NCBI GenBank assembly: GCA_963575745.1
Contig: CAUYUJ010000169.1
Coordinates: 62,001-117,286, forward strand
From: Prorocentrum cordatum
Lineage: Eukaryota
Length of the DNA stretch: 55,286 nucleotides
Direction of reading: 5' to 3'
The notes below the pieces were generated by a model. The model was not told the origin of the DNA and searched no databases. It was given only the letters and a program-made list of their open reading frames with translations. The translations under genes and the position numbers were made by a program. Within the stretch, counting starts at the first letter, position 1. The number at the start of each line of letters is the position of its first letter. Below are positions 6,375 through 48,732 of the stretch, one piece after another.

Positions 6375-9300
6375 TTACGAAAAAAAGTGGTGTGGGGGTC
6401 GCTGAGGGGTAGGTCCGCGTGGGAGGGAAGGTTGGCGTCTCGGTGGGGCGGCATGGTCGGCAGCGTGTGGTATCGGCGGTGCGTCCTCAATGCCACTCAG
6501 TCCTCGGGGGTCGCCCAGGTCTTGGTCGGCGTCTTGGCGGTGGCCGATGTCATCGTATGTGGGCGTTATCGCTCTTGGGGACGGAGTCGCAGTAGGGGTC
6601 GAGAGGTTTCCCGACAGGGCGGGGTTTTCGCTGGCTGGTCCGTCGTCCAAAGCGTCCGATCCCCCACCGAAGCTGAACAGGTCATCGTCCTGCTCATCAG
6701 CGTCTTGAAAAGGAACGGCGTTGTCGTGTGGGTGCGCTGCCGCACTCAATGGCGGAGTCGGGGGCGCCGTGCGGGTGCCCGACGGGGCAGGGCTGGCGCT
6801 GGCTGGCCCGTCGCCCAGGAAGTCCAGGCCTCCACCAAAGCCGAACGGGTCGTCCTCCTGTTCGTCGAATAACACCCGTTGGGCCTCGGCCCAGAGCTCG
6901 TCGGGGTCTTGTGGGATGTCTGGTCCAGCCGCGGGTGGTGCCTGGTCAGACAGCAGGGGATTTGGTTCCATTTTGTTTAGGTCCGCAGCTGTGAACCCAG
7001 CCCTGCGGTGTGGGAGGGGGAGTGTACGATGTCTACGCTCGTAGATGGCGACAGCGACTCCATGAAGCACGGTCGCTTGGCGATGTCGTGATTTGGCAGC
7101 TTCGACGATGTCGTCTGGAAGGTTATGAGTACGTGCCGCCGCTGTGGCGAGGGCGTCAGCCTGACAATTGAACTCCTCCGCGATGGGCCCGATGAGCCCG
7201 AGGTCGATGCCCATGTCGCCCCGGTGGCTAGCGACTTTCTCGACGCGGAACATGTTTGGCTTGGCCATGACGCATCGGTGGACCTTTTCCCAGAGCTCCA
7301 CGTGCGTGCCCTGCGGTGGTGAGTGTCCGTCGATGATCCTTTGGAAACCGTCAACCACCGCCTGGTTGTCCACGAAGACGTGCACAGGCCGTTCGGCACA
7401 TGCCGTGAGGTGGACAATGGCGAGGGTCTCCGCAAGCTGTGCGTTCTGCGTGATGCCGTGAACGCGCGCACTGTAGTTCATGCGGTGGTCGATGCCGTAG
7501 TAGACGCCGTAGCCCGCTCGTGCTAGCAATGGGATGGCTTGGTTGGTGCATGCACCGTCCGTGGCAGCGTAGACCCATGTCCAGCCAGTGTCGTGGTCAA
7601 GGTAGGTGGTGTAGGAGTCCTGGGCTGAAGCCGCAGGATCTCCCTCAGGTGGGGGGCGCGGTATGGGCTGAGGTAGCGGGTCCCTCGCGAGGTCGGCCTG
7701 CAGGTCGAGGAGGGCTGGGTCTTCATCGAAGAGCCCGCAGTGTCTTGCGCGCGGTGGAAGACGGGCCCACTGCTCGTCACTGATGAGGGTGGTAAGAGGG
7801 ACTCTTTCGCGGGCCCAGCACTTGCAGTCGCGAACAGTGTGCTCCTGAGTTTCCTCTTCCTCGTCGCAGTAACGGCAGATGGGGCTGGGGTCAGCGGACG
7901 TGTTTGATCGAGATCGTCGCTGTTGGGTGTGGTCCCCGCCCGACAGGTAGTTGAGGAGGAGCGCCAGCTGCCATGCGTTGCATTTGGCTGCTCCTTTCGT
8001 GCGGGCGAGCCACGTGCTGGCGAAAAGGTCGGGGCCCTGTCTGACAGAAGCCAGATGTCCAAGGTCATGACGCCGTGGCTTGATTTTTCTCAGAAAGGCT
8101 CTGCGTTGTGAGGCGCGCAGCATGTGAAGGAAGGCGTTTTGGGGAAGGTTCAGCCAACTGATCTGACAGCCCCAGTCGTCGTACATGATGCCAAATGTGG
8201 GCCAGGTCCAACGGAGCTGCTGAAGCGTCTGGACAAGTCGTCCAACAGGTCCTCCCCCGAGAAGGGTCTGGACATGGTGTTTGAGATCCCTGACGAGACC
8301 GCAAAGAGTGGCGTCGCGGTTGACCTGTCGCCGCAGACACAGGAAGACTTCACGCTGCATAATGGCGTCAATCTCCAGGGCGTGTCCTGGGGCGCACACG
8401 GCCATGAGAGTCCAAAACTCGACCCACCTGTTTCCCTTGGGGCGGATAGCCGCCTTGAGGGCATGGTTGTAGGCAGTTTTGACGGGGCCTGATGGGGCTT
8501 GAATGTCAGTGCCTGTGGTACAGACGCTGGCAGCAAGGGAGCGGGCGTGCCGCGCCTTAATACGCATCGGTGATGGGAGCTTGCCAATACGCGGCAGACG
8601 ACTAGTCGCCCTGCGAACACGGGCGTCAGCGGTGGCCGTGAGGTTGAGCGCGGCTGGAGCCGGCGCTGCCTCGGCGTTGATGTAACTTCCGACGAGCTTG
8701 AAGGAGTCGACCACTCGTAAGGGCCGTTCCGCCAAGGTGAGCTGGGTAACGGCGGTGTGAAGCTCGTCAGTAAGCGCCCACCCCGCCACTTTTCCAGGAT
8801 GAATGCGTTGACCAGAAAATCGATCAAACTTGGCGGTTTCATCAAGAGATTTCTGCAACTCGGGCGCGGTGTGGGTAGTGGAGTTGCTGTCATCAACAAA
8901 AGTAGTGCTGAGTGATCGCGGCACGTAACGATGCTGTCTCTTGGTCCAGACGCACATGAGCAGCTTAATGTCGTCCAGGGACCAAGAGCTTCCCTGGAGG
9001 TGACCGTTTGTCCTGGCCAGTTCCTTAGAGTACGCACCGTTCATGCGGATGTAGCGTTTGTGGCGACTGTAGAAGTTTCTGCTGACAGTAACGATGTCTT
9101 GGGGACACCCCGCGTGAAGCGCAAGGTTAAGGCATATGTCCGTGATGAGATAGTCGAAACACTTCTGTCGGTCCAGGGCAGCTCCAGCTAAGGGAAGGAG
9201 TAAGGCCCTGGCGTGTTCGATGCGCAGGGCAAGAGATGTGCTGACGTCCCCAATGGTAGCTTTGGGGACAGCGCCAAAACTCGTGGCGTGGGTCCATCCT

Positions 9301-9620
9301 TTCCGCCAGTCCGTGAGGCTGCGGTAAGCTGGCGTTTCCCACGCATACATCCAAACGGAAAGCACCGAGAGAAGACGTTGGTCCGTTGGGAGTTCGCCTC
9401 GGCCTTTTCGGAGGCACGGGTTTGGCACGTGGAGGAGGGGTTCTGGGATGGTGCCAGTGCGTTGCATAGCTCGTAGGACGCTGGCGAAGAGGCGAAGAAT
9501 GTCGTCGGGTAGCTCCTTTGCCTCCTTAGTAGTCCAGCCGTCCAGTCCCCCCGCGCGGCGCGGTGAACGGGTGCGAATGAAGTGGATGAGTTGGTCGTCG
9601 GTGAGGTGGAAAGGGGGTAG
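6375..9620 (-). CDS. LINE A polyprotein, C-terminal part: reverse transcriptase, zinc finger, RNase H
   Basis: RT motifs AGGLDG, QRLLSV, LDRQKCFD, GHLQGSSWS, FVDD (8889-8900), FKLVG. ZnF CRYC..ETQEH...C (~7823-7878). RNase H motifs TDGAC, AETLA, VDNQ, KVASH, NCQADALA (~7130-7570). By comparison with the sister copy the true stop is 5692-5694; 6110-6450 is garbled. Confidence 0.92.
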   Translation of the reverse strand, partial: LPPFHLTDDQLIHFIRTRSPRRAGGLDGWTTKEAKELPDDILRLFASVLRAMQRTGTIPEPLLHVPNPCLRKGRGELPTDQRLLSVLSVWMYAWETPAYRSLTDWRKGWTHATSFGAVPKATIGDVSTSLALRIEHARALLLPLAGAALDRQKCFDYLITDICLNLALHAGCPQDIVTVSRNFYSRHKRYIRMNGAYSKELARTNGHLQGSSWSLDDIKLLMCVWTKRQHRYVPRSLSTTFVDDSNSTTHTAPELQKSLDETAKFDRFSGQRIHPGKVAGWALTDELHTAVTQLTLAERPLRVVDSFKLVGSYINAEAAPAPAALNLTATADARVRRATSRLPRIGKLPSPMRIKARHARSLAASVCTTGTDIQAPSGPVKTAYNHALKAAIRPKGNRWVEFWTLMAVCAPGHALEIDAIMQREVFLCLRRQVNRDATLCGLVRDLKHHVQTLLGGGPVGRLVQTLQQLRWTWPTFGIMYDDWGCQISWLNLPQNAFLHMLRASQRRAFLRKIKPRRHDLGHLASVRQGPDLFASTWLARTKGAAKCNAWQLALLLNYLSGGDHTQQRRSRSNTSADPSPICRYCDEEEETQEHTVRDCKCWARERVPLTTLISDEQWARLPPRARHCGLFDEDPALLDLQADLARDPLPQPIPRPPPEGDPAASAQDSYTTYLDHDTGWTWVYAATDGACTNQAIPLLARAGYGVYYGIDHRMNYSARVHGITQNAQLAETLAIVHLTACAERPVHVFVDNQAVVDGFQRIIDGHSPPQGTHVELWEKVHRCVMAKPNMFRVEKVASHRGDMGIDLGLIGPIAEEFNCQADALATAAARTHNLPDDIVEAAKSRHRQATVLHGVAVAIYERRHRTLPLPHRRAGFTAADLNKMEPNPLLSDQAPPAAGPDIPQDPDELWAEAQRVLFDEQEDDPFGFGGGLDFLGDGPASASPAPSGTRTAPPTPPLSAAAHPHDNAVPFQDADEQDDDLFSFGGGSDALDDGPASENPALSGNLSTPTATPSPRAITPTYDDIGHRQDADQDLGDPRGLSGIEDAPPIPHAADHAAPPRRQPSLPRGPTPQRPPHHFFS

Positions 9621-12600
9621 CTGGTGATGGCGTAGGCAGCTCCTGTTGGTACTCGTCGTAGAAGTCGGCCCACGTCGGCATGGCTTCGGCGTCGTGTCCC
9701 GCACGTGCACGGTACCTGCCCAAGATGGGCTCCCAGGTGTCGACCATCAGCTTCAGCATGTCCTTGGTGTTAGCAACAATGGCGTTGGCAGGGAGGATGT
9801 CGGGGACTTGCGCAGGTGGTGGTTCACGAGGGTGGTCTTCGTCGCTGTCCGTGTCGGGCGAACTACCGTCGCTGGGGCTGAAGCCGCCAGCTTCGGTGTC
9901 AGCGTCGCTGTCGTCCGTGCAAGCTTCGTCAGGTTTACAGGCGTTGGTGTCGCAGTGGAGTTGCGTATCGTCAGGAGTGGTAGGCGTGCGGAGATACGCC
10001 GTGGGCGAGCTGTCAGCAGCCCGTGCGTATATGGCCGCCTTTCGCCCGCTTGGCTCCCGGACGCCCTCAGCCCATATCCTGATGCGTTCAGCTTTGGCAC
10101 GGTTCGCGCGTCGCGCCAGCTCCAAGTCGAGGTGTTGGATCAAAACGTCAAGGTGCTCTCCGTGCGGCACTGGCTCGTCGGGGGACCAGGCCTCGGGGAA
10201 GTCTAGGAGACCCGTGGGGCGCAGCTTGTGGCATAAGAGGCGGGCCGCGGCCCACGTGCAGTCGATGCGCTGCGCGAGGTACGGCGGGATGGCACGGCAA
10301 TCCAAATGATGGTGCAGTCCGATGAAACGGAGCTCGCAGAGTTGCCGATGGAGCTTGCGCAGTCGGTTCATGTGTATCGTGGAAGCTCCGTAGGTGGGGA
10401 AGGCGCGGGGGACAACTGGTCGATCTTCGAACGTGGGCGTGAGCCCGTGCATGGTGGGGGGCTTCTTTTTTGGGTGGTCGGACGGTGGAGGTGGCAGGTC
10501 GCGCAGACGGGTGAAATGGCACTCATGACTGGCCTCGTTAGCCAGGGCGAACATGCGCTCCACGTCGTCTCGTGTGTCGGCCTGCTCCATGCGGTCCTGA
10601 TATCGCTCAGCGATGAGGGTCCCTAGTGCCTGCAGCTCGTGACCCTCATGAGCTCCATCGTCGGGCGGATAGGGCGTGGGGGCATGAAGACGTCGGGCCG
10701 TATGGTCGAGGCGACTGAGGTCAAGCGTGACCTGCAGGCCAACGTGAGACTTCGCAGGCAAGTCGCGAAGGTAACAGAAGTCGGTGACAAGGGATCGCGC
10801 CGCTTGGTTGGCAATGATATAGTCGATGCGCGAAGTGCGGGGGCTCTTGGTGAGGCGGTCCCAGTCAGGGATATTGCCGTAAGTGTGCATGGTGTGGTCT
10901 GGTGTGCCCTCAGCAACGTTGAACCATCCGTGCTGCAACATGTGCAGAAGGTGTGGATTGTCGTCAATGTTCGTATTGGCGTCCATGCAGATGAAGTAAG
11001 GGGCTGAGCCGACCCTAGCGGCGGCGCAGTCAGCGAGCCGAAAAAGAGCTGTGCTGTCTCCTCCAGCAATCCCGTAGAGGCTCGCTATGTAGATCCCCGC
11101 GGGCCCGTGGTTGTTTCGTCGCCGCCTGTGGCGGTGTTGAGTGCAGAGCGGGAGAAAGACCTCGTGCCATCTTTTCTTGGCCTTGAGGGCGGCGATACAG
11201 GGCGTATTGTCGTCGACAGTGGAGTCGACGATGGCATCCTTAGAGAGAATGGCGACCCCTCCCGAGGCGCCAGTGTTTCCCACAACGGTGTGATCAGTGC
11301 CGCCGTGGGCAGCTCTGCGATGGGCTCGCGCCAGATCAAGGTCAGGTCCAAGACTGGCGTGGTATCCACCGTGGAGAGGATTGGCGGCGCTGGTAGCGAT
11401 GGCTTGCCTAGTCGGCTTGGCGTGTCGGGTCTCCTGCAGTGCTATGACAGCGGCATTGTGGTCGACACCAAGGGCGGTGATGGTTGGCCAGTTCGCTGAG
11501 AGACTGGTGATGTTAAGGCTGACGAGGTGTATGGAGCGACCTGGCCCGTCTCCATCGGTGGAACTGGGGTTTGCACGCCCCGCACGGTGAAGGTCGGCTT
11601 GACCCTCACCCAGGTAGGAGGCTTGGCCACAGTAGGAGCTCATGGCGTTCCCATGGATTAGCTTGACCGGGGCTGAAGCCGCCGTCAGGCCAGAAATATA
11701 GGCGGGACACGGTCGGCATTGCGCCAGGGGGGGTTCATAAATGTCAGTATAAATGTTACGAAAATTCCTCCTCACTCCAGTACCGTAGGGGACGAGGGGA
11801 GGAGAGGTGAGACGGCAGCAGAGGGGGAGGGAGGCGACTCCTCGATCCGTCCTGCCGAGCACAAAAACAAAAGCGAACCAGCGGCGGCGGCTAGGCGCGG
11901 CGGCGGCACAACGCACGCGCATGTACTGCGCACGCGACACCGCTGGTCCCTCCTGCGGTGGCGCGCCCGCCCCGTCAGTATCTTGATGAGCAGCATCTGG
12001 TGGAACAGCTCCAGCAGCACGGTCGGAGGCCTGGCGCTGGGCCTCTTCCATGCCCGCTGCCGTGAGGCCCACGTTGCGGACAGGGCTGATTCCCCGCGGG
12101 GCCGCCGCAGCCGCAGCAGCCGAGGTGGCGGGGGCTCCGCCCCGACTCTGAGGGGAGAGCGGTGAGCCCCCGCCGAAACCCGCCACAAGGTTCTTGACAC
12201 GGTACTTGTTCTTGAACGGGTCGAAGGTTGGCGCCTCGTCGATGGGGACGATCACGCGGGTGAGCAGCGGCGGCTCGTGGTCCGTGGACGGCGTCGGCGA
12301 GAGGTCGACCTGGCCAGGATCAATGACGCTGGCTCCGAAGCGTGGCACCACTTCGGGGGCTCGGCCATCGGCCTGAGTCTCGCGAGGCGGCGAGCTCGGG
12401 GAGCTCCCTGGGGCCTTGCGTGAACTGTGGCGGCTGCAGGTCCTGCTGCGCGGGACGCGCCCGCCCGTGTGGCGGTCGCGTGGCGAGGTCGCCTGCGCAT
12501 TAGCACGCTCGGAATCCGCCCTGCTCGGGGATCGGATCGGCGCCGCGCAGGGTGATGGGCTGGGCTGGCGAGGGGCGCTTATGCCGCCTTCCGCCGTGGC

Positions 12601-13305
12601 TGTGGCCTGGTCGGGGTCGACCGCGTCGGGGCGGGGGCTGACGTGGTGGGCGCTTCCCTCGCTGTGCCGCGGGGAGGCGCTGTGATGCGCCTGGATGTGC
12701 GTGAGGACGAGCGGGGTAAGCGGCTGCCTCCCCCGCTCAGGTGGGGCAGGTTTTGCCTGGGCAGGGCGCAGTGCTGCAGCTACGTTTGGCGGGGGCGTGT
12801 GCTGGCGAGGTTGCCAAGCGCGCACGTTCGCATCACGCCATCCTTCGGGGCGCCCAGCCCTGCCACGGTTTGTTGCAGCCCCCTGGGCTGAAGCCGCAGG
12901 GGTTATCACTGCGGGCTGGTTTCTGGAGGAGCCATCCTGTCGGCCTGAGTAAAGGCCCCAGGCGCGCGTAGACCCTGGCACTGGCGAGGTGGCCCTTAGG
13001 GCCTGCACGGGTGCACGCGGGTAGCCGATGACCGCTGGGTGTACCCTAGCATGGGGGGCGTGGCCGTAGCTGGAGGCGGCTGCTCCAGCAGCCGCGGGCC
13101 TGGCGCCTATGGGGCCACGGTAGTAGGCGGCAACCCCGTCGTAGGCCGTGTTGCCGCCTGTCGGGACTCGCGCCGGGGAGCGGTAGCGTGGCGTGCCGTG
13201 CTGTCCTGCGTCACGTTTGTCCCGCTGCTGGATGCGCTGCTGGTGCTGTTGGTGACGCTGCCAGTCGGCTCTCGAGAGGGGACGGGTGTCGGGGAGGATG
13301 GTGGG
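9526..13305 (-). CDS. LINE A polyprotein, N-terminal part: low-complexity region plus AP-endonuclease domain (~10720-11535)
   Basis: APE motifs LVSLNI, IALQETRH, GGVAIL, IASLYG, ICMDAN, SRIDYI, SHVGLQV. The frame switches to ORF 6375..9710 near 9603-9620. The ORF-track extension across the N gap is not real. Confidence 0.85.
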   Translation of the reverse strand, partial: PTILPDTRPLSRADWQRHQQHQQRIQQRDKRDAGQHGTPRYRSPARVPTGGNTAYDGVAAYYRGPIGARPAAAGAAASSYGHAPHARVHPAVIGYPRAPVQALRATSPVPGSTRAWGLYSGRQDGSSRNQPAVITPAASAQGAATNRGRAGRPEGWRDANVRAWQPRQHTPPPNVAAALRPAQAKPAPPERGRQPLTPLVLTHIQAHHSASPRHSEGSAHHVSPRPDAVDPDQATATAEGGISAPRQPSPSPCAAPIRSPSRADSERANAQATSPRDRHTGGRVPRSRTCSRHSSRKAPGSSPSSPPRETQADGRAPEVVPRFGASVIDPGQVDLSPTPSTDHEPPLLTRVIVPIDEAPTFDPFKNKYRVKNLVAGFGGGSPLSPQSRGGAPATSAAAAAAAPRGISPVRNVGLTAAGMEEAQRQASDRAAGAVPPDAAHQDTDGAGAPPQEGPAVSRAQYMRVRCAAAAPSRRRWFAFVFVLGRTDRGVASLPLCCRLTSPPLVPYGTGVRRNFRNIYTDIYEPPLAQCRPCPAYISGLTAASAPVKLIHGNAMSSYCGQASYLGEGQADLHRAGRANPSSTDGDGPGRSIHLVSLNITSLSANWPTITALGVDHNAAVIALQETRHAKPTRQAIATSAANPLHGGYHASLGPDLDLARAHRRAAHGGTDHTVVGNTGASGGVAILSKDAIVDSTVDDNTPCIAALKAKKRWHEVFLPLCTQHRHRRRRNNHGPAGIYIASLYGIAGGDSTALFRLADCAAARVGSAPYFICMDANTNIDDNPHLLHMLQHGWFNVAEGTPDHTMHTYGNIPDWDRLTKSPRTSRIDYIIANQAARSLVTDFCYLRDLPAKSHVGLQVTLDLSRLDHTARRLHAPTPYPPDDGAHEGHELQALGTLIAERYQDRMEQADTRDDVERMFALANEASHECHFTRLRDLPPPPSDHPKKKPPTMHGLTPTFEDRPVVPRAFPTYGASTIHMNRLRKLHRQLCELRFIGLHHHLDCRAIPPYLAQRIDCTWAAARLLCHKLRPTGLLDFPEAWSPDEPVPHGEHLDVLIQHLDLELARRANRAKAERIRIWAEGVREPSGRKAAIYARAADSSPTAYLRTPTTPDDTQLHCDTNACKPDEACTDDSDADTEAGGFSPSDGSSPDTDSDEDHPREPPPAQVPDILPANAIVANTKDMLKLMVDTWEPILGRYRARAGHDAEAMPTWADFYDEYQQELPTPSPATPFPPHRRPTHPLHSHPFTAPRGGTGRLDY

Positions 13306-13405
13306 NNNNNNNNNNNNNNNNNNNNNNNNNNNNNNNNNNNNNNNNNNNNNNNNNNNNNNNNNNNNNNNNNNNNNNNNNNNNNNNNNNNNNNNNNNNNNNN
13401 NNNNN
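13306..13405. other. Assembly gap (100 N)
   Basis: Run of N. Confidence 1.
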
Positions 13406-15029
13406 ATGCCAAATTCCTCTTTGAAACTTGAAGGAAAATCGCAGATTGTTGTGTACTCCCTCTTTCGATTCCGATGGGCCCCCGGGGCCTCCAGATGGCT
13501 CCAATATGTCCCACGGGGGCTCAAATAGACGCCCAATATTGCCCCAAAGCGGCCCCGAGAGCGCACAAACGCACCCAGAGAGCGCCTCAAGAGGCCCCCA
13601 ACAAGCGACTGTGGCTCAAGAGGGGCGCCGTAAAATAAGGACCCCCCCCTCTTTGATCGATCCGTTCCAAAATTGTCTCAAGAATGCCTCCAAAGCCCCC
13701 GACAAGGCCCAAATATGGCCCCAAGAGGCCACGCGAGGCCACCCAAACGCCCCCAAATGGTCCCCAAACGGCCCTTCAGAAGCACCCGAGACGCCCCAAG
13801 AGGTCCCGGGGGCCGCCAAGAGAACGCCAACGCCTTCCAAGATATATCCAAAAGGAATTCCTCCTGCTGCTTCTCGCTCCTCCCTCATCCCCCCTCCTCT
13901 CATCATCCGCCTGCTCCTCATCCTTTTCCCTTCTTCATCATCAATCCTTCTCCTCCCCATTATGCTTCTCCTCCTCCTCCTCCTTCGACCGATAACGGCT
14001 GCCCCTCTTCGTTCCGACATATCCCTAATCACCTCAACTCGGCTGGGCGTCCTTTCTGGATGGGCTGGTGATCGCGCGCTGGCACCGGTTGCATTTGAAA
14101 GGCGTTATCCTCCTCACTTGCAGGTTTGGAACATGCTGCCCTTGAAGAGCGCGAGGCAGAAAAGGCCGCTCAAGTGCAACCGCTCTGGGCGCGGGGCCCG
14201 GCGGCAGAAAAAAAAAAAAAACGCGTCTCGACAGCAGCAGGTTCCAGTTGCTCTTGAAGTGCGCTTGGTTTCTCACCACCAGGTTGCGCGCCGGGGGCGG
14301 CTGCGTTTGACGGGCGGTTTCTTCCTCATTTGCAAAATTGGGACATGCTTCCATCGAGGCGCGCGACGAAGAAAAGGCCACTCAAGTGGAACCGCTCTCG
14401 GCCCAGAATCTGGCGACAAGAGACCAAGCCCTTTTTCACGAGCATTCTCCTAACGGGCGGTGTCTTGCCAGCGTGCCTCCACCTCCCTCCTGCGCCGGCT
14501 GCGCCCCTCATCCCCATGCTGCTCATCCACCGCGTGCCCCCCTCAACTTCGCGACGGTTTCTCTCTGAACCTCCTGCGTGGGGTCGGAGGAGATGGGGTC
14601 GGAGGATCACGCTGCATAACCGATGCATCGCCGATGCGGTTCGATGCGGGGCCTGATTTGCGTCGCGCCGACGTCGCCGATGCACCGCCGGCGTCTTTGA
14701 TGCATCGCTTGTGCGTCGCCGATGTTTCGCCGATGTATCGGCGATGCGGCGAGATCCCCCGACCCATCTACTCGGGCCCATCTAGGAGGCGTCTATGCTC
14801 CGCCGCCGCAGTCCCCCCTGCGCGTTACAGCGCTGGTCGCCGCGCTGGCCCCCGACGCCGTCTACGCCTGGCACGCGCCAGCGCGACTGCGCGCCAAATC
14901 TGGCTTTCGCAACCGCGAGTTCGCGGGCTCGATATCGAAAACATGCATCACCTGGGTAATTTAAGCCATCATATGTAATTCGCACCAGCCCTTTAGGGCG
15001 TGATTGGTTGACAACGTTTCCCTTTTACC

Positions 15030-24700: not shown

Positions 24701-25946
24701 ATGCCTTGCGATTCTAAGGCCTGTATATGGTTGGGTCCTTCGCCAGGATAATGTTTGCTGCGCGTTTGGGACTCCGCCGGAACATTCAGAGCACGTTTCC
24801 CCTTGGGGGATCTGCCGTAATTGGTTGCCACGCAATCCTGCCGGTTCGAACGTTTGGCACATTATAGTGAATTCAGTATGTTTTGCTGGAGCTCCGCCTG
24901 AACACATCCCGAACGTATTTACCATTATTTTTCTCTCTGGGGGCAACGTCAGGGGGGGATAGGTTTCAGGGGGGATGCATCAACCGCCAATCGCCCATTC
25001 ATCGCCGACAGGGGCCCGACAGACCCCCCCCCCGTCCAGCTCCGTGCAGTGTCGCTATCGAGGGCTTATCGCCGACCTATCGGCGATGTATCGCCGATTC
25101 AAGGTCGACGTTCCCCCTTCCCTCCACCTGAGCTGGTCCCCCCCTAACGTTGCCCCATCGCCTCCTCCACTGTGCGGTAGGAGCGCTGGGTAAGAGTTGC
25201 GTCTGGCCTCAGACCCAGGGGAACTCCTTCTCTGATGAGGGCGGCAGTGATATCCGCGGCCAGTCCACGAGTAGAGTTCCACCTGCTTCCAGGCGCTGGA
25301 GCGGCCGCGAGTGGCTCCAAGTTTTCCCTGGAGATGTCTCTGGATTCCCCTGGTGGCTCACCTGGGTTTGCCTCGATTTATGCTTGGATGTGCCTGGATG
25401 CGCCTCGCTTGATCTGCCATTGACCTGGATTTTTGTCTGGCTCGGTCCCCACAAGCCGACGGCGACAAGTCGACAAGCCCCCAGGGATTACCCGATGCCC
25501 TCACCGCAGTCTGCCCCCCTGGAGACGGTCAGAGGCCGCCTGGCGAGGGCCCAGCGTCGGGCCCGAGCCCGCCCGAGCACGCCGTGGGCCGTCGGCCCGG
25601 GGCGCCGCGCAGACGTCCTGGAGGCGTCCAAGTCAAGCAGTGGCGAAGCGCCCCGGCGTGCCTATAGGCCCACCAAACAGTGTCCTAAGAGCCTCTTGTG
25701 TGGCTTCCGCAGAATGTTGGCGGAACGCTGCTGGCTGGGACTGTCTTGTTTGGACACATCGGCTTCACGTTCTAAGGACACTGTTTTGGCTATCGGGACA
25801 GTGCTGTGTTCTAAGAACATGCCGTAGTAGGCCTGCAGGAATGCCAGGACGGTCGGTCCCTGCTCAACCAAGACGGACAGCTCAACGTCTCCCCCAGAGG
25901 CCCCAGAGCACACCCAGACGGCCTCCAGATCACCAGAAGGCCCACT

Positions 25947-25967
25947 CCCTGCCCGCTTTGGCTCAAG
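25947..25967 (+). other. Degenerate dinoflagellate spliced-leader relic
   Basis: CCCTGCCCGCTTTGGCTCAAG matches CCGTAGCCATTTTGGCTCAAG at 16/21 positions, with the last 11 identical. It lies 63 nt before the in-frame ATG at 26031 and at the switch to lower-GC coding-like sequence. Confidence 0.65.
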
Positions 25968-26030
25968 GCGATGTGGCGCTAGACGTTGCGGTTCAAACCG
26001 GCATTCCTTGTTCGAGGCATCATTCTCTTG

Positions 26031-27615
26031 ATGCATCGTCGCATCGCCCCAGTTGTACATGACTTTCTCTGCCAGCCATCGTTCAGGCCTGTCAAGGCAT
26101 ATTTGAAGGTGATGACACACAGACAAACGTTGTTATCGAACGGCCAATTCTTCCAGAATGATTTTGCGACGCAGCTAAAACAACTGCGGAGTTCGGAATT
26201 GCACAAAACCGTTTCTGCTATGCCTAAGGGTGCCCTTCTACACACACATCTTGCTGGCATGGGTGATCGATTGTCTTTGCTTCAGAGCGCACAAACATAC
26301 TTCACGGACCGTGACGATCAATGCTGGGTCGGCGCGAATGGTGTTTGCCGCGTTTCGTTGCGCAGCGATGCTGGAGAGGTTTGCCTTGCTGATGTTGATG
26401 TTGTAGAGTTGTCACGAGACATGATGTTGCAGCCACCTGATGGAACTGGTGCCGATCTTTCCAACCTGCAGTGGAAGAAATTCGAGGCATGTTTCGATCG
26501 TTTCGATAGTCTCTTTTTTTACGAACCCTTCTTTGTAGATCACGTACTGCCAGCGGTTTTCACGAGCTTACGCAACGACCACGTGTGTGCAGTGGAGTTA
26601 GCCCTGAATCCGTGTCGCAAGCTTCACAGGGGCAGCGGAACAATCGATCCCACAGGAACCCGCCTCATAGGCCTAATCAAAGATTTTGCTGACCATATTG
26701 CTTTTCCGCTGCAGTTCCGCTTGACTTTGAGCCGCCGCAAGTCGATAGAGGACCTACGCGGCGATTGCGAGAGATTTATCGAGTTAAGGAGGTTGTTTCC
26801 AGACAGTGTGACGACATTCGATGTGTCAGGTCAGGAGGGCATTGGGAGGACATTGAGAGAGATGGAGCCTCTGGCAATCGCTTTACGCAAAGGTGGGTTT
26901 AAACACTGCGCTCTGCATGCTGGAGAAATCAATGATGTCCGGCATCCCGATGTTGTGCAAGCGTTGTTCAGCAGGTCCTGGGAACCATTGAGGCTAGCCC
27001 ACCCCATTGCAACAGCGAAAGCAGGTGATCATATTCTCAATGCTATCAGGTAGAAGGGCATTTGGCTGGAGGTAATGCCTTTCAGCAATGTGTTCTTGGG
27101 ATATACTGCAAACATTCAGAACCACCCAATCGTATCTCATAGGGAATTGCTGACATCGCAAGGAGTGATGGCGTCTGATGATGATGGTATATTTGGAAGC
27201 ACAAATTTAACTGACAATTTTGCATTCGCAAGTCTAGCTTGGGAGCTAGAAGTACCCAGCATGCGGAAATTGGCTGAAAACAGCATCGTTGCAAGTGGCT
27301 TTCCAGAGGATGTAAAGCACAAGCTTCAAGCACAGCATAAAAAAGATTGGCAGCAGTGGGAAGCTGAATGCGCAGCACCTGCCGATCGCGTCATCGGCCA
27401 AATTCTCAGCGCCTCAAAACAAACACATCAGGAGACGCACAACCCCGATCTACTTCAGATGTTTGATCAATTCGTAGGCAACCCGATCGCCAGGTTTCGG
27501 AGAATGGATGGCATTGCCCTCCAGTATGCTTTTACGATCGAGATGTACACTGCATTGATTCCACCGTTCAGCTCCGAACTTGATGTTGTGTTTGTTGCAT
27601 CAAACAGACATGGAT
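26031..27615 (+). CDS. Segment 1: ADA2/ADGF-like adenosine deaminase domain plus start of PA domain (in-frame TAG at 27051)
   Basis: Motifs MPKGALLHTH, FDVSGQE, LHAGE, RLAH, LEVMPFSN, HPI, ASDDDGIFG, LAENSI. All Zn-binding and catalytic positions appear intact. ORFs 25986..27053 and 27075.. share a frame. Confidence 0.9.
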
Positions 27616-29085
27616 ATTGGGAAGACCTTACGGCCGGTGCCGCCGACCCTGAAGGGGGGGACGACGACCACGACGGCGGCGTCGGCGACGACGACGCTGA
27701 CGTGGGGCAGAGATGCTTCGTGGGGCCTCTTCGGAGCGCGCCCGTAGGCCTCTGGGGGGCAGTTTTGGGTCCTCTTGGGAGCATTTTGGGGCCCCTTGTA
27801 AGAGCCTCTTGGTGGTCCCTTCGGGCTTCCTAGGGGGTTCTTGGGGCCTCTTGGGGGCCTCTTGGGGCCTCCTAGGGGGTTCTCAGTGCCGAGGGCTCGA
27901 AATGTTCGTTCGGGTTCCCGTGTGGTCACCCTCTTGGAGCCGTTTTGGGGCTTCTTGGGCCATCCTGCGGCCGTCTTGTGTTGATTTGGGGCCGTCTTAG
28001 AAATCTCTTGGGGGACTCTTGTGCAGATTTTTGTGGCATCTTGGGCCGTCTTATGGCGTCGGGAAACCGAAAAGGCGAGAACGCCAGATTCTTTCGAACA
28101 CCAGATTGAAATCATTGAGTTCTGCTTCTTGGGGCTCTATTGGTGTGCTCTTGGAGGCCTCTTCGAGCCTCTTGGCAGCCGCTTGGGCTGTCATGAGGCC
28201 ATCTCTGGCGTCTTGTCTCCTTTGCCTTGGCTTTGGGCTGGGTAGGGCGAATGCATGGGGGGCTGACCGCTCGGCGGGAGGCACCGCGAGCGCGCTTCTC
28301 GCAGGGCGCGCCAGAGGTGACCTCGCCCCCCCACTCGAGCGAGTCGCTTTGCGAAGAGGGCGCAAGCGCGTTGAATGGCCCCGCCCACCCGCACCTGCCC
28401 CGCCCCAGAACGCGGGGTTCGGGCGGGGGCTTCTTCCCACCCCGAGCGCAGAGGCTCGAGGAGGTCCCCCTCCGCGCGGTTCCAGGACCACTCGAGAGGT
28501 GTGACTCACGCGTGCACGCGCAGACCAGAGCCTGCTCCGCAGGACCATGCCCTGGTGGAGGGCCTGGCCCCTCTCCCCCACGTTGGCGCGGTCCTGGCTC
28601 GTCTCTCTCTCTCTCTCTCTCTCTCTTGCGGCACTCCCCCACGTGCTTGCCGCATTCGCTTCGCTGCAGCTCGCTCCGCGCCGTCGGGACCGATTGTTTG
28701 GCGATTCGGGGCTTTCTTGGACCGTCTTGGGCGCCTCTTGGGCTGTCTTGGGGCCTTTTTGGGCCCCAGGACCCCCTCGGGGGAGGATGGCATTCTGACC
28801 CGGGACCCCCCCCCCCTTGGGACCCCCCTCAGGATATCCCCAAGAGGGGGAAGGGATCAAAGGCAATGGGCTTCCACTCGACTCAACTGCGGCGTTGCTC
28901 AATCTCGCTTTGGTTTTGCTTTGGCTGGTTCGCTCGACGAGGAGAGCCCAGTGAAAGGGGGGGGGAGCGGCGAAGGGCTCTGGGAAAGGAGGGTCAAACG
29001 CGACGGCGATGGCGACGACGACGACGACGACGACGACGTCGAGTCAAAAAGAACAGCGTCTTCCACACGCCGACTGGGTCGGCGG
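27616..29085 (-). mobile_element. Non-autonomous Helitron2/Helentron-like insertion (boundaries +/-3 nt)
   Basis: Asymmetric IR CCGCCGACCC (27640-27649) / GGGTCGGCGG (29076-29085); terminal hairpin CGCCGAC-TGG-GTCGGCG; no TSD; CTCTTGGGG-rich interior shared with 47980-48600. Confidence 0.7.
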
Positions 29086-30913
29086 ACTGTGATTTCGTGC
29101 ATGAACACATTGCAGGAAAGGCTGTCGTTGTGTTTTGGAAGAATAGAGAGTCTGTCGGTGTTGCTATGAGAAACGCCGTGGGCGCTTCGGCATCAGCACT
29201 CATATGTGTCCTACCGACTAACGAGCTCCTCAAGATCAAGACAAGTCCTTGGGCTACCGCAGGCTTCCCTGATGATGTGTTGGCCCATGATGACAAGCTG
29301 ATCCCTTTTGTGATCATTGGCCGGAGTGATGGGATTGCTTTGTGCCGCGAGTTGCGTGCAGGCAGTCGAATACCAGTTTTGTTCGAGAAAGATGATGTCC
29401 TACAGCGCATCGGCGAATTCACAGCAAAGTTGGGTAGCATTTTCTTGTGCATGCAGCAGACTGAGTTGATTGAAGACATCTCCGAGCAGTTCGATGCACT
29501 CATGCGTTGTATGACTGGGTATCCCAGCTTTGCAGACTTACAACGTCTTATTGCCACAGGAAACAGTGAAGATGAGGCAACACGCCTCGCCATGTACATC
29601 ATTTGGTTGACAGTCCTGTCAGTTGACATTCGCAGCTTTGCCAGGCTCGCAAGTCAGATGCTCAGTGCATTCGAAGCCGATTTGAGATTTGTTTTGAGCC
29701 CACGGCAGATCGACCTCCACAAGTCGATGCTTGTGCATCTGAGGGAAGATGCTAGTGCTAAGCGCAAAGTCTCCGAATCAGCTCTTTTTGAATCGTTAAC
29801 ACAAATGGAAGCGATCTTAGCAGATTTCAAACAAGCTGCAAAGGATGACACCTTTAGTCGGCATTCTACGCATGTGATGGAGTCTATCACTGATATGTCA
29901 GACCCACTTGCGGCAATGAAGGCTCTGCATTTGATCTGCACAACCGAGATGCTTGCTAATATTCCTGCTGTTTTGCAGCAACACGTGGCCACGATAGAAA
30001 GCATTATTGAAGACCTCAACTGCGTGACGAGCCCTATGGACATGATCCTTCAGGAAATAGGGTTTGCTCGCATTGCAGTGAAGGTCTGTACGACGAAGCA
30101 AAGGTTGGAGTTGCAAATGGCTTTTAGGGCTTTTAGATTTGCGCAGAAAGATTTCGCGCTATATAACAGTGTATTCGGCGCTTGGTGCTCCCATGCCGCT
30201 ATGAACACGATGAGAGATATCTTCGGTGCACACTGGCAACCTGAAGCCTTCCGGGAATCAATCGCAGCTGCACTTAGTGAGGCAGATGCATGGGTTTGGC
30301 ACGAACTTACGACGAATATGAACGCGCTCCTATATGTTGAAAATCCGAGGCAGCAGTCGCAGATTTTAGTGCAGATATTGACTTTGGTTCGGACGACGCT
30401 CTTGAAGCTTCTCAGTGGTACCGACTCGCAAATGAAATTTGTGGAAGGTCAGCCAGACTCAGCACCATCGCCCAGTCATCAGGTGATGCTCTACACGCGG
30501 AGCCATTTCAAGCTGGAAGAAGTCAAATGCGCCTTGGATGTGGTGGATTCAGAAGCGCCGATCATGAGTAATAAACCCCGCGTCGACGTCAGTGTCGTCA
30601 TGTGCACTGAGACCCCCGAGGATGCCCTTCAACAGGGGGCAGATGCTATCCCATTGCGAGCATATCTATCAAATCGTTGCAAGATGGCGTGCGGTATTCA
30701 GGGGTGCCCCATTCTAATTGAGAGTTGTTTTCTGTTGGACGCAAGGGTGGCAGAAATTGATGTTGATATGATGACCATCAGCGAGCTCAGACAATCCGGA
30801 AGGGCTTCGCCCTTTGCCGCCCCCACTCTCTGTATTAGAATTGGAGATGTCCGCGCTATGCTGGGACGTGCCGGCGCTGTTTGGAAAGTTTCGGGGAGCA
30901 TTTGGCGAGGACG
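29086..30913 (+). CDS. Segment 2: PA (protease-associated) domain, ~370-aa helical region, N-terminal half of Ham1-like domain
   Basis: PA-like CDF..IAGKAVVV..NAVGASASALI..IPFVIIGRSDGIAL. Ham1-like VMLYTRSHFKLEEVKCAL and NRCKMACGIQGCPILIESCFL (compare human ITPA VFVTGNAKKLEEV and [21 protein letters not shown]). Confidence 0.8.
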
Positions 30914-31548
30914 ATTGGCACTCCACAAGCACCTTGAGCTGTTGCTGACCGCTTCGCTTCCTTCTCGGAGCGCGAAGCTGGCGTAATCTGAAAGAGACTC
31001 TGGCCTGAGAAGCGCGCGCCTGGCATACTTTACAAAAAGGATTCTTCTCTCGGGAGCGCGAGCCCGGCGTAGGTTGTTCAAGATTCTGGCCTCGGGAGCC
31101 CGGCTTTGGCGTAATGTGCCAGGGATTTTGGAATCGGGGGCGCGAATTCGGAGTAATCCAGTTATGGATTCTCATTTCGGGAAGATCCATACGGCGTAAT
31201 CTGCAAGAGAATCTCGCCCCGGGAGCGCAAATTCGGCGCAGGTCACGAAGGATTCTGGCTTCGGGAGAGCGAGTCTTGCGTAATTTACAAAGGGCTCTGG
31301 CCTCAGGAGCGCGAGTCTGGCGCAACTCACTAAGGATTCTGGCCTCGGGAGTGCGATTCCGGCGTAATTTGCGAAGGATTCGGGTTTCGGGGCGCGAACC
31401 CGGCGTAATCTGCAAAGGATCATTGGCCCGGGAAGGCGAATCTCACGCATGGTTACGCGTTCCAGGGCCACGCAGATTTCTGAGAACCTTTAAGGGGGTG
31501 GGTGGAAGCGGGGTGGCGCTGGGCTACCCCCCTCGCGCGGACAGCAAC
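30914..31548 (-). mobile_element. Second asymmetric-IR (Helitron2-like) insertion containing a ~40-bp tandem repeat
   Basis: IR GTTGCTGACCGC (30941-30952) / GCGGACAGCAAC (31537-31548), 11/12 complementary. Starts with ATTG like the first insertion. Interior repeat GGCGTAATTTGCGAAGGATTCTGGCCTCGGGAGCGCGA. Confidence 0.7.
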
Positions 31549-31978
31549 GATTGACAGCAGGAAGCAGAACGGACGTAGCATCACAACATTGGGAAGAGGC
31601 CACCTCAGCCCCGCAGCTTGGTGGCCCCACAGGGAGGCCAGCGGATGGATGGTTTGGGATACGGCAGTCAATGCGTTCAGGGGAGGTGAGCAGAATTGGT
31701 ATGGCCAGCTTGCCCTTGAATTGTCTTATCTCGCTTACTTCGATTCGCAGGGTATGGAGCAGCCCAAAGTGTTTCGTCGGGCTGGGCTCGGCATGATAGG
31801 AGCGCCTCAAGGTGTGCGATGCTTTGGGTGGGATCGGTACTTTCGGCCGCTGTCACCACACGCATCTCCATTCACATACGCACAAATATTGCCGCGCCGG
31901 AAGGCTGAGATGTCCGCACGCGGATTTAATGTTCGGCAGTTGAACACTTTCTTGCAGGAGAGCCACCTCAGGATCTGA
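31549..31978 (+). CDS. Segment 3: C-terminal half of Ham1/ITPase-like domain
   Basis: KVFRRAGLGMIGAPQGVRCFGWDRYFRP..TYAQILPRRKAEMSARGFNVRQLNTFL aligns by eye to ITPA [55 protein letters not shown]. Confidence 0.85.
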
Positions 31979-32576
31979 ATAACAAATTTGTCCAGTGAAG
32001 GATTTGGATCATGCATGGTCTTGGTTGACACAGCTGAGATCCGCAGGGGACTCCAACATGACCCTCCACTCGGTCCCGCAACGGCTCCAATGTCCCCCCC
32101 GCCAGATGCCCCCGAAAACCTCGATGAGATTTCCACCAGCCTCGCCACGACGCCCCCTGCAAAGTCTCAACGATCTTACACTCACACTCCAAGAAGAGCC
32201 CCACGCAGACCCATAGACCTCAAGCCAGCCCACTTCATATTGCGAAGGCCTTACGGCCGGTGCCGCCGACCCTGAAGATGAGGACGCTGACCACGGCGAG
32301 GTAGAAGGAGGAGAAGTAGGACGAGCAGGGGGATGAGCCGCATGAGGAGGAGGAGGGTGAGGAGGATGGGGAGGAGGAGGTGGAGCCAGAGCTTCAGGGA
32401 AAGGGGGGGGGAATGGAGGCGGGTTAGAACCCCACACAGACCCACAGACCTCAAGCCAGCCCACTTCATATTTTGTCTCGCACTTGCCCTGGACAGCTCG
32501 AGGGTCCGCAGTGACAGCTTCGGGCACCCGAGTGCAGCCCTCAAGGGCCCGTGGGGCTCCGTAAGACCGTGGGGCA

Positions 32577-47902: not shown

Positions 47903-48732
47903 ATTTAATCGCTTCGCTCATTCCGCCGGCCCATACAGTCTCATGTCTGCCGTTTGCCCGAGGGCCTGGTGTCAATGCGGCGCTTTGGGGGTTCCTGGGG
48001 CCGCTTGGGGCACTCCTGGGGCGCTCGGGGGGGCATTTGGGGGGCCTCCTGGGGCCGCTTGGGGGACTCTTGGGGGCCTCCTGAGGGCCCCGTGGGGGCC
48101 TCTTGGGGCCTCTTAGGGGCCTCGTAGGGGCTTCTTAGGGCCGAGGGCTCGAAATGTTGTTTCGTGTTCCCTCTCTGGGGCCCCTTTGGGGGCGTTCTTG
48201 GGGCCCTCTTGGACCGTTTTGGAGGCTTCTTGGGCCGTCTTCGAGCCCTCTTGGGCCATCTTGGGGCCCTCTTGGGTGCCTCTTGGGCCCTCTTGGGGCG
48301 ATCTTGGGGGCCTCTTGGGCCGTCTTGGGGCGTCGGGAAGCCGAAAAGGTGGAAGCTCCAAAATCTCTCAAAAACCTATGGAAAAACAATGATTTTTGCC
48401 TCCGGGGGCCCTATTGGGAGTGCTCTTGGAGGCCTCTTGGGGCGTCTGGGGGCTATCTTGGGCGTCTTGGAGCGATCTTGTGGCATGTCGGACCCCTCGT
48501 GTACCATCTTGGGGGCCTCTTGGGGGCCTCTTGGCCTTTCTTGGGGCTCTCGGGGACGTCTCGGAGCCCTGTTGGTGCGCTCATGGAGCGCTCGGGGGGA
48601 CCCGGCCGGGACCTGGTCGGGGTACTTTTCGTCCGGGGACCCCCAGGGGCCGCCCCGCGCGCGCGAACTAGAAAATTGTTAACCAGTTACCGGAGATCTT
48701 AGCACGCCTCTGGCCCGTTGGGCCGGCGAATT
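47903..48732 (-). mobile_element. Helitron2-like non-autonomous element
   Basis: Asymmetric IR CGCCGGCCCA (~47924-47933) / TGGGCCGGCG (~48719-48728); terminal hairpin GGCCC-GTT-GGGCC; interior homologous to 27720-28210. Confidence 0.65.

Follow-up and report, generated by a model that had tools for sequence, protein, structure and literature searches.

Pairing of an adenosine deaminase with a HAM1-type protein is known from the bacterial Kongming system, in which KomA is an adenosine deaminase, KomB a catalytically dead HAM1 protein and KomC a SIR2 protein (bioRxiv 10.1101/2024.12.20.629578). In KomB, the catalytic Asp is replaced by His, hydrolysis of deoxyinosine triphosphate (dITP) is lost, and KomB binds the dITP signal made via the deaminase (bioRxiv 10.1101/2024.12.20.629578). 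For human ITPA, a study on the T. brucei enzyme names Glu44, Asp72, Arg178 and F149 as crucial residues. Here, we analyzed a 55,286-nucleotide (nt) stretch of Prorocentrum cordatum DNA (GCA_963575745.1, contig CAUYUJ010000169.1, positions 62,001–117,286; hereafter the window, in which all positions are counted), where a single gene encodes an adenosine deaminase domain and, at its C-terminus, a Ham1-like domain. Kongming is the closest analogue, since there too an adenosine deaminase is paired with a HAM1-type module that has lost its catalytic Asp, the replacement here depending on whether the alignment of the N-terminal half (N-half) of the domain holds. In a preliminary description, positions 30480–31978 had been read as a Ham1-like pseudoenzyme with a large internal insertion. 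Our analysis shows that this segment belongs to an expressed gene of three exons on the plus strand, of which it spans the last part of exon 2, an intron of 851 nt and exon 3.

The gene structure was derived from RNA. Data sets containing 0.39–0.60 of the words sampled from 25900–32100 were found by an RNA run search, and four runs (X1, X5, X9 and X15) were mapped on 25500–32300. X5 is poly(A) RNA, X15 consists of stranded raw reads, X1 and X9 were used as contigs, and the data sets span different years. Two of the RNA data sets consist of poly(A) runs and carry the label marine metagenome, one of them being based on a metatranscriptomic library. In X1 and X9, long contigs of 3759 and 3765 nt, the latter with zero mismatch, cover 25967–27615, 29086–30793 and 31645–32046/32051. 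The gene consists of exon 1 (25967–27615, with the coding sequence starting at the ATG at 26031), intron 1 (27616–29085; 1470 nt, GC content 0.64), exon 2 (29086–30793), intron 2 (30794–31644; 851 nt, GC content 0.585) and exon 3 (31645–32051), in which the stop codon lies at 31976–31978 and the 3' untranslated region extends to ~32046–32051. The joint 27615>29086 was present in three contigs (X1, X5 and X9) and in four raw reads of X15. The joint 30793>31645 was present in one contig each of X1, X5 and X9 and in 11 stranded reads of X15 with 8 different starts, and all four runs skip 30794–31644. Within 30948–31628, X1, X5 and X15 had a read depth of 0, and the depth of X9 did not exceed 1.03. 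The first mate of the X15 reads across both joints always mapped to the minus strand, and the transcript therefore corresponds to the plus strand.

Joining of the exons creates a Tyr codon (T/AC) across the first joint and a Gln codon (CA/A) across the second. The joined exons form a single frame of 356 + 867 codons with one TAG as the sole break, and the spliced frame from the ATG at 26031 comprises 1208 codons. The gene structure, splicing, reading frame and expression are thus shown by the RNA data. An artefact of template switching during reverse transcription was ruled out, since both joints preserve the long frame, the depth within the intron is zero and the four data sets are concordant.

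This structure disposes of the inserted subdomain. The preliminary description had placed ~120 amino acids between IESCFL and LALELSYL, but this "insertion" is intron 2, which is removed from the mRNA in 4/4 runs. The two halves of the Ham1-like domain lie in different frames, the N-half in frame 0, in an open reading frame (ORF) that ends at the TAA at 30984–30986, and the C-terminal half (C-half) in frame 2. After splicing, the spacer between IESCFL and LALELSYL measures 41 amino acids, as against the ~35 quoted earlier for ITPA, and the whole domain has ~215 amino acids compared with 176–194 in our reference set. The distances in the spliced domain are 70 (K–E), 84 (E–F) and 32 (F–R) residues, compared with ~49, 76 and 29 in the references. 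Intron 2 itself contains a degenerate tandem array with a unit of 42/84 nt and no assigned strand (30980–31442 by self-BLAST; Tandem Repeats Finder rows at 31192–31420). The false subdomain illustrates an artefact that arises from translating through an intron.

The N-terminal part of the protein, encoded by exon 1, appears to be an ADGF/ADA2-type adenosine deaminase domain. Residues ~45–470 matched TIGR01431 with E = 9e-15 and 1.2e-8, collinear over profile positions 58–332 and 371–474, with scores of 54 and 34 bits that are far under the curated cut-off of 315. The C-terminal part of the deaminase matched PF00962 with 29.2 bits (cut-off 27; E = 6.4e-7). Moreover, human ADA2 (PDB 3lgd) was matched with E = 2.6e-6 and 2.7e-7, and its HxH, HAGE and SDD motifs aligned with the HTH, HAGE and SDDD that are retained here. 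Judged by these alignments, both the metal-binding and the catalytic motifs appear intact. The AMP deaminase of Helix pomatia, an ADGF-family enzyme of solved structure that acts on adenine nucleotides, also matched the domain (E = 4.4e-5). The domain is therefore like ADGF/ADA2 (CECR1) in its collinearity and aligned motifs; unlike ADGF/ADA2, the protein scores far below the TIGR01431 cut-off, shows no obvious signal peptide by eye and carries a C-terminal extension of ~700 amino acids with the Ham1-like domain at its end.

Between the two domains lie ~450 amino acids that are predicted to be mostly helical and are assigned to no family. Exon 2 encodes a faint PA-like stretch (Pfam, E = 0.24), a helical region of ~350 amino acids, a linker and the Ham1-like N-half. 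A single-sequence AlphaFold2 model of exon 2 had a mean predicted local distance difference test score of 37, which is unusable, and it is not taken as evidence. Searches with Pfam, PADLOC, NCBIfam and the ESM Atlas found no SIR2 or other effector family in these ~450 amino acids.

The C-half of the Ham1-like domain, encoded by exon 3, is Ham1 by profile comparison. Its translation matched PF01725 with 24.5 bits (cut-off 22.5; E = 2.8e-5), over profile positions 116–184 of 186 only. For a closer comparison, 32 ITPA-like Ham1 ORFs of 176–194 amino acids were chosen by eye from 120 prokaryotic loci and aligned. Against this reference alignment, the C-half gave an hhalign probability of 95.6% (E = 1.1e-8, 78 columns), and in a local hidden Markov model (HMM) search it scored 30.1 bits alone and 28.4 bits as part of the whole domain. 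Human ITPA was matched with E = 0.01 over residues 129–180; this alignment pairs FGWD, TYA and the Lys and places S-A-R against the S-H-R of ITPA. The FGWD (TTT GGG TGG GAT, 31823–31834) is invariant in 32/32 references, as is the Arg of S-A-R (TCC GCA CGC, 31913–31921).

The putative N-half (30480–30793; QVMLYTRSHFKLEE ... PILIESCFLL ... ISELRQ) was placed by a collinear MAFFT alignment, and its homology to Ham1 lacks statistical support. Q-V-M-L-Y-T-R-S-H-F-K-L-E-E begins at 30480, and the Glu-Ser (GAG AGT, 30720–30725), which stands opposite the Glu-Asp of VEDT, lies inside P-I-L-I-E-S-C-F-L-L. MAFFT aligned the full-length domain to the references collinearly, with small insertions only. 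Of 17 columns that are invariant in the references, 10 are kept, 2/7 in the N-half (K12 and E63) and 8/10 in the C-half, and 7 are lost (E35, Q37, K48 to R, P76, G77, G124 and P143). The column after the invariant Glu, which corresponds to Asp72 of ITPA, is acidic in all 32 references (26 with D, 6 with E); if the N-half alignment holds, it is Ser here (AGT, 30723–30725).

The residues listed in the preliminary description, namely Glu-Ser, FGWD, S-A-R, FKLEE, NRC (with Arg for the Lys of QKC), TYA and the Lys preceding S-A-R, are all present where it placed them, and its count of two substitutions from Asp to Ser (GAY to AGY) is correct. The motif equivalences that it drew hold in the C-half, where FGWD, TYA, the Lys and S-A-R/S-H-R are borne out by the alignment to ITPA; in the N-half, where IESC was equated with VEDT, FKLEE with the first Lys and NRC with QKC, no significant Ham1 signal was detected. 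Its classification of the domain as a pseudoenzyme fares in a similar way. Accepting the alignment, a Ser opposite an acidic residue in 32/32 references and the loss of 7/17 invariant columns speak for it, whereas the Asp-to-Ser change is statistically unsupported and the SAR carries little weight. The His column of SHR holds H in 10/32, M in 19/32 and Q, P or L in one reference each, Arg alone being invariant; SAR is weak evidence for a pseudoenzyme because His occurs in only 10/32 references. The pseudoenzyme idea is thus plausible, but weaker than had been stated.

Compared with Ham1/ITPase proteins (PF01725; human ITPA, PDB 2car/2j4e), the domain is alike in its C-half motifs and, after splicing, in length and spacing. 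In contrast to them, its N-half is unrecognisable, the aligned residues include Ser for the acidic residue, Asn to Ser, Lys to Arg and His to Ala, the PG loop is lost, and FGWD is followed by R instead of P. Furthermore, Ham1/ITPase stands alone, whereas the domain here is fused to the end of a protein of 1208 amino acids.

We consider with moderate confidence that the domain is a diverged Ham1-fold module attached to an expressed deaminase gene, one that would hydrolyse (d)ITP or xanthosine triphosphate (XTP) poorly, bind purine nucleotides and regulate or localise the deaminase. The chain would carry, in order, the ADGF/ADA2-type domain with apparently intact motifs, the ~450 mostly helical amino acids and the Ham1-like domain of ~215 amino acids. 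The last of these is predicted to be a strongly diverged Ham1 fold, in which the C-half would keep the base-stacking FGWD and the specificity Arg, while the N-half would bear Ser next to the invariant Glu at the position where all reference enzymes are acidic, as far as the collinear alignment can tell. Such a domain may no longer hydrolyse (d)ITP/XTP efficiently and may act instead as a purine-nucleotide-binding module; by analogy with KomB, a non-hydrolysing, nucleotide-binding role is the most likely one. Its ligands would most likely be nucleotides of the inosine type, akin to what is produced by the deaminase on the same chain, an enzyme that it could regulate or localise, and its position on one chain with an apparently competent deaminase is suggestive in this respect. 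From the aligned residues and this arrangement, we infer the loss of catalysis and the ligand, and likewise the fold of an N-half that has drifted past statistical recognition.

In the details, the resemblance to Kongming is partial. KomB keeps Asn9, Lys12 and Glu15 and has Asp changed to His; here, the alignment gives Ser at the Asp site and Asn to Ser, with the Lys and Glu kept. The Kongming parts are separate bacterial proteins, whereas a single eukaryotic polypeptide with an ADGF-type deaminase is encoded here, and no sequence relationship between the two was shown beyond the family level. KomC of Kongming is a SIR2 protein, whereas no SIR2-like or known effector family was found here by Pfam, PADLOC, NCBIfam and the ESM Atlas. 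The gene is not a Kongming system because no SIR2-like effector is present.

Several results weigh against the nucleotide-binding module proposed above. The N-half, with FKLEE and IESC, was insignificant in every test: there was no Pfam match at E ≤ 10 and no PDB match, hhalign against the reference alignment gave a probability of 0.45%, and the local HMM gave −0.6 bits, a score equalled by 203 of 3000 shuffles (P = 0.07). The ESM Atlas likewise returned nothing related to the N-half, the best match (0.76) being to an unrelated family. The T-x-N-x-x-K, PE, Lys and Glu-Asp motifs of the Ham1 N-half are not recognisable by profile, and the resemblance is collinear and at the level of motifs. The equation of IESC with VEDT comes from this collinear alignment and is plausible but unproven, and the Asp-to-Ser change could be an alignment artefact. 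In addition, the ligand and the regulatory role are conjecture throughout. As for the transcript, the splice evidence comes from RNA runs, and the RNA could formally stem from a DNA copy that lacks the introns; against such a copy, the X9 RNA is identical to the locus at each base, its private TAG included, and shows faint intron coverage.

Alternatively, the domain could still be an active pyrophosphatase for non-canonical nucleoside triphosphates that uses an unusual set of catalytic residues and which together with the deaminase would form a two-step enzyme converting an adenine nucleotide to an inosine nucleotide and then to inosine monophosphate and pyrophosphate. The domain keeps FGWD and the specificity Arg as well as the first Lys, the Lys preceding the S-A-R motif and the invariant Glu, the family can do without the His of SHR (found in 10/32 references), another acidic residue could serve in an N-half of uncertain alignment, and ADGF-family enzymes that act on adenine nucleotides exist, such as the Helix pomatia enzyme matched here at E = 4.4e-5. 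Nevertheless, the aligned Ser stands where 32/32 references have D or E, and Asn9, Lys48, the PG loop, Gly124 and Pro143 are replaced as well. In KomB, replacement of the same Asp accompanies the loss of dITP hydrolysis (bioRxiv 10.1101/2024.12.20.629578). An active enzyme is therefore improbable in our judgment.

Further results that count against a functional module concern the state of the gene. An in-frame TAG at codon 341 (27051–27053), which lies within the deaminase domain and is shared by the assembly and run X9, would end translation far upstream of the Ham1-like domain; in X1, X5 and X15 the codon is CAG (Gln). The C at 27051 accounted for 18.7 of 18.7 in X1, 6.4 of 6.4 in X5, 0 of 44.1 in X9 and 4 of 4 reads in X15. 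Elsewhere in the exons, X1 and X15 do not differ from the window. The change between TAG and CAG could reflect a nonsense mutation private to the strain or U-to-C editing. Between the strain of X5 and the window, 17 differences were counted, of which 11 are non-synonymous and 6 synonymous, corresponding to a ratio of non-synonymous to synonymous polymorphism (pN/pS) of 0.52; with 17 differences between two strains, this value is not distinguishable from neutrality. None of the differences lies in the Ham1 part, where 614 nt (X5 record 12) are identical between the strains.

Relatives were also lacking. Searches of protein collections with exon 2, the C-half and the N-terminal part of the deaminase gave nothing usable and no orthologue, and tblastn with the spliced protein revealed no paralogue elsewhere in the window. 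Comparison of exon 2 with 1.84 billion representatives by HMMER yielded no credible relative; one match to a tetratricopeptide-repeat protein (E = 3e-4) was judged spurious. Pattern matches to exon 3 in JGI metagenomes numbered 196, and two viral scans gave 5 and 3; of these, 0 were confirmed in each case. The combination of a long adenosine deaminase with an altered Ham1-like tail has so far been found nowhere else in the collections searched.

A spliced-leader-like 11-mer, TTTGGCTCAAG, lies at 25957–25967 on the plus strand as the single exact match in the window, and its last base, 25967, is the first base of the contigs X1 record 4 and X9 record 16. We take TTTGGCTCAAG to be the 3' portion of the spliced leader known from dinoflagellates. 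Its position at the start of the contigs suggests either a retroposed gene copy or a trans-splice acceptor region; a retroposed copy, in a dinoflagellate-like protist, is what we infer.

The preliminary description had taken the two substitutions as an argument against recent pseudogene decay, a remark to which the TAG at 27051–27053 in the assembled strain, against CAG in three RNA data sets, adds a new fact. The gene could be a lineage-specific retrocopy drifting to a pseudogene, with the Ham1-like part as a decaying remnant devoid of function. The TAG that the assembly shares with all of the X9 RNA, a pN/pS not significantly below 1, the lack of relatives in the collections searched, and a spliced-leader-like relic directly upstream, as a retroposed copy would have, are consistent with such a fate, as is the GC content of the coding sequence (0.50 versus 0.58–0.64 in the introns). 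Against it, the frame of 1208 codons is open over two splice joints save for the one TAG and includes a run of 867 codons, CAG stands in the three other RNA data sets, and four data sets, collected in different years, show transcription and precise splicing of the gene. Moreover, the deaminase motifs appear intact and the Ham1 part shows 0 differences over 614 nt between strains. We regard a decaying retrocopy as unlikely.

Ham1 ancestry limited to the C-terminal ~80 residues, with 110 unrelated residues upstream, no equivalent of the ED and no complete Ham1 fold, agrees with the negative outcome of every N-half profile test and with the failure of the N-half to add HMM score (28.4 bits for the whole domain versus 30.1 for the C-half), but is quite unlikely given that the best sub-threshold N-half pieces, at profile positions 5–22 (MLYTRSHFKLEEVKCALD) and 44–63 (LSNRCKMACGIQGCPILIES), are the very pairings of the preliminary description, follow each other in the expected order and are spaced from the C-half approximately as in Ham1, and that the Ham1 sheet in ITPA structures is built from both halves, so that a lone C-half would hardly fold.

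Taking the nucleotide-binding module as the preferred interpretation, a more far-reaching version of it can be imagined, in which a eukaryotic single chain signals through an inosine nucleotide made by its own deaminase, the dead Ham1-like domain sensing the product and switching the middle module of ~450 amino acids. We consider this version a long shot. If it were true, the logic of Kongming, a deaminase plus a dead HAM1 sensor, would extend from bacterial immunity to a dinoflagellate-like protist. Dead Ham1 domains as sensors of deaminated nucleotides have been shown recently in bacteria, and this gene would be a natural place to ask the question outside bacteria.

Both introns of the gene have non-canonical ends. 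The RNA joint allows AT..GG, or TT..GA after a shift of 1 nt, as the ends of intron 1, and AT..GG, TC..GA or CC..AT as those of intron 2; no placement of either joint fits GT/GC/GA...AG. Both introns begin with ATnnGGAAGnnCTT (10/14 identical in register; estimated chance ~7e-4) and finish with GCGG. The ATnnGGAAGnnCTT...GCGG pattern occurs at these two sites only within the window, from which sites it was itself derived. Intron 1 contains a 10-nt inverted repeat (CCGCCGACCC at 27640–27649 and GGGTCGGCGG at 29076–29085), the 5' copy being located 25–34 nt from the start of the intron and the 3' copy forming its last 10 nt. The ends of intron 2 showed no inverted repeat of at least 7 nt, and the end-pairing energies of the introns were not better than those of shuffles (P = 0.13 and 0.17). 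The direct repeats at the intron ends measure 1 and 2 nt. Furthermore, the whole-intron fold was unremarkable (z = −0.59), and an Rfam scan around the locus gave no match.

Several known classes were considered for these introns. U12-type AT-AC introns were excluded, the 3' ends being GG or GA. Definition by a terminal hairpin is unsupported for intron 2, which has no terminal inverted repeat and duplex energies at the level of shuffles. A Helitron-like or TA/AT-target transposon origin, for which intron 2 can be read as TC...GGA between A and T, was rejected as unsupported because intron 1 does not fit. Non-canonical, repeat-derived introns and introner elements have been described in Amoebophrya (PMC7789003). 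Like these, the introns here are spliced without GT/GC/GA-AG ends and are repeat-related, and the inverted repeat of intron 1 reaches its 3' end. Unlike the Amoebophrya elements, whose inverted repeats of 8–20 nt and direct repeats of 3–5 nt lie within ~30 nt of the ends (PMC7789003), intron 2 lacks an inverted repeat and the direct repeats measure 1–2 nt. The two introns may thus belong to a non-canonical, repeat-derived intron family. Gene-model pipelines for core dinoflagellates accept GT/GC/GA-AG introns only (PMC10666404). This restriction could be the reason why the predicted protein is missing from the protein collections searched.

Sequences related to intron 1 recur elsewhere in the window. 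The segment 32237–32298 repeats the first ~60 nt of intron 1 with 87% identity. Pieces of ~42 nt at 32237–32298, 25633–25673 and 25823–25868 occur in many RNA contigs with unrelated flanks and at 10–100x the depth of the gene, and look like a dispersed, transcribed repeat family. A 47-nt direct repeat with 93.6% identity (32195–32241 and 32426–32472) encloses a segment that starts intron-1-like and runs into an AGG-rich simple repeat. In addition, the stretch 27756–28175 of intron 1 (~450 nt) is 72% identical to 48007–48450, 20 kb downstream, which marks it as an interspersed repeat.

Away from the gene, the window has a gap of 100 N at 13306–13405. Two long overlapping ORFs of 1111 and 1354 amino acids lie on the minus strand at 6375–13590. 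The longer ORF gave a sub-threshold match to Exo_endo_phos (E = 1.5e-4, 22 bits versus a cut-off of 24.5), and the pair may represent a retroelement of the long interspersed nuclear element type.

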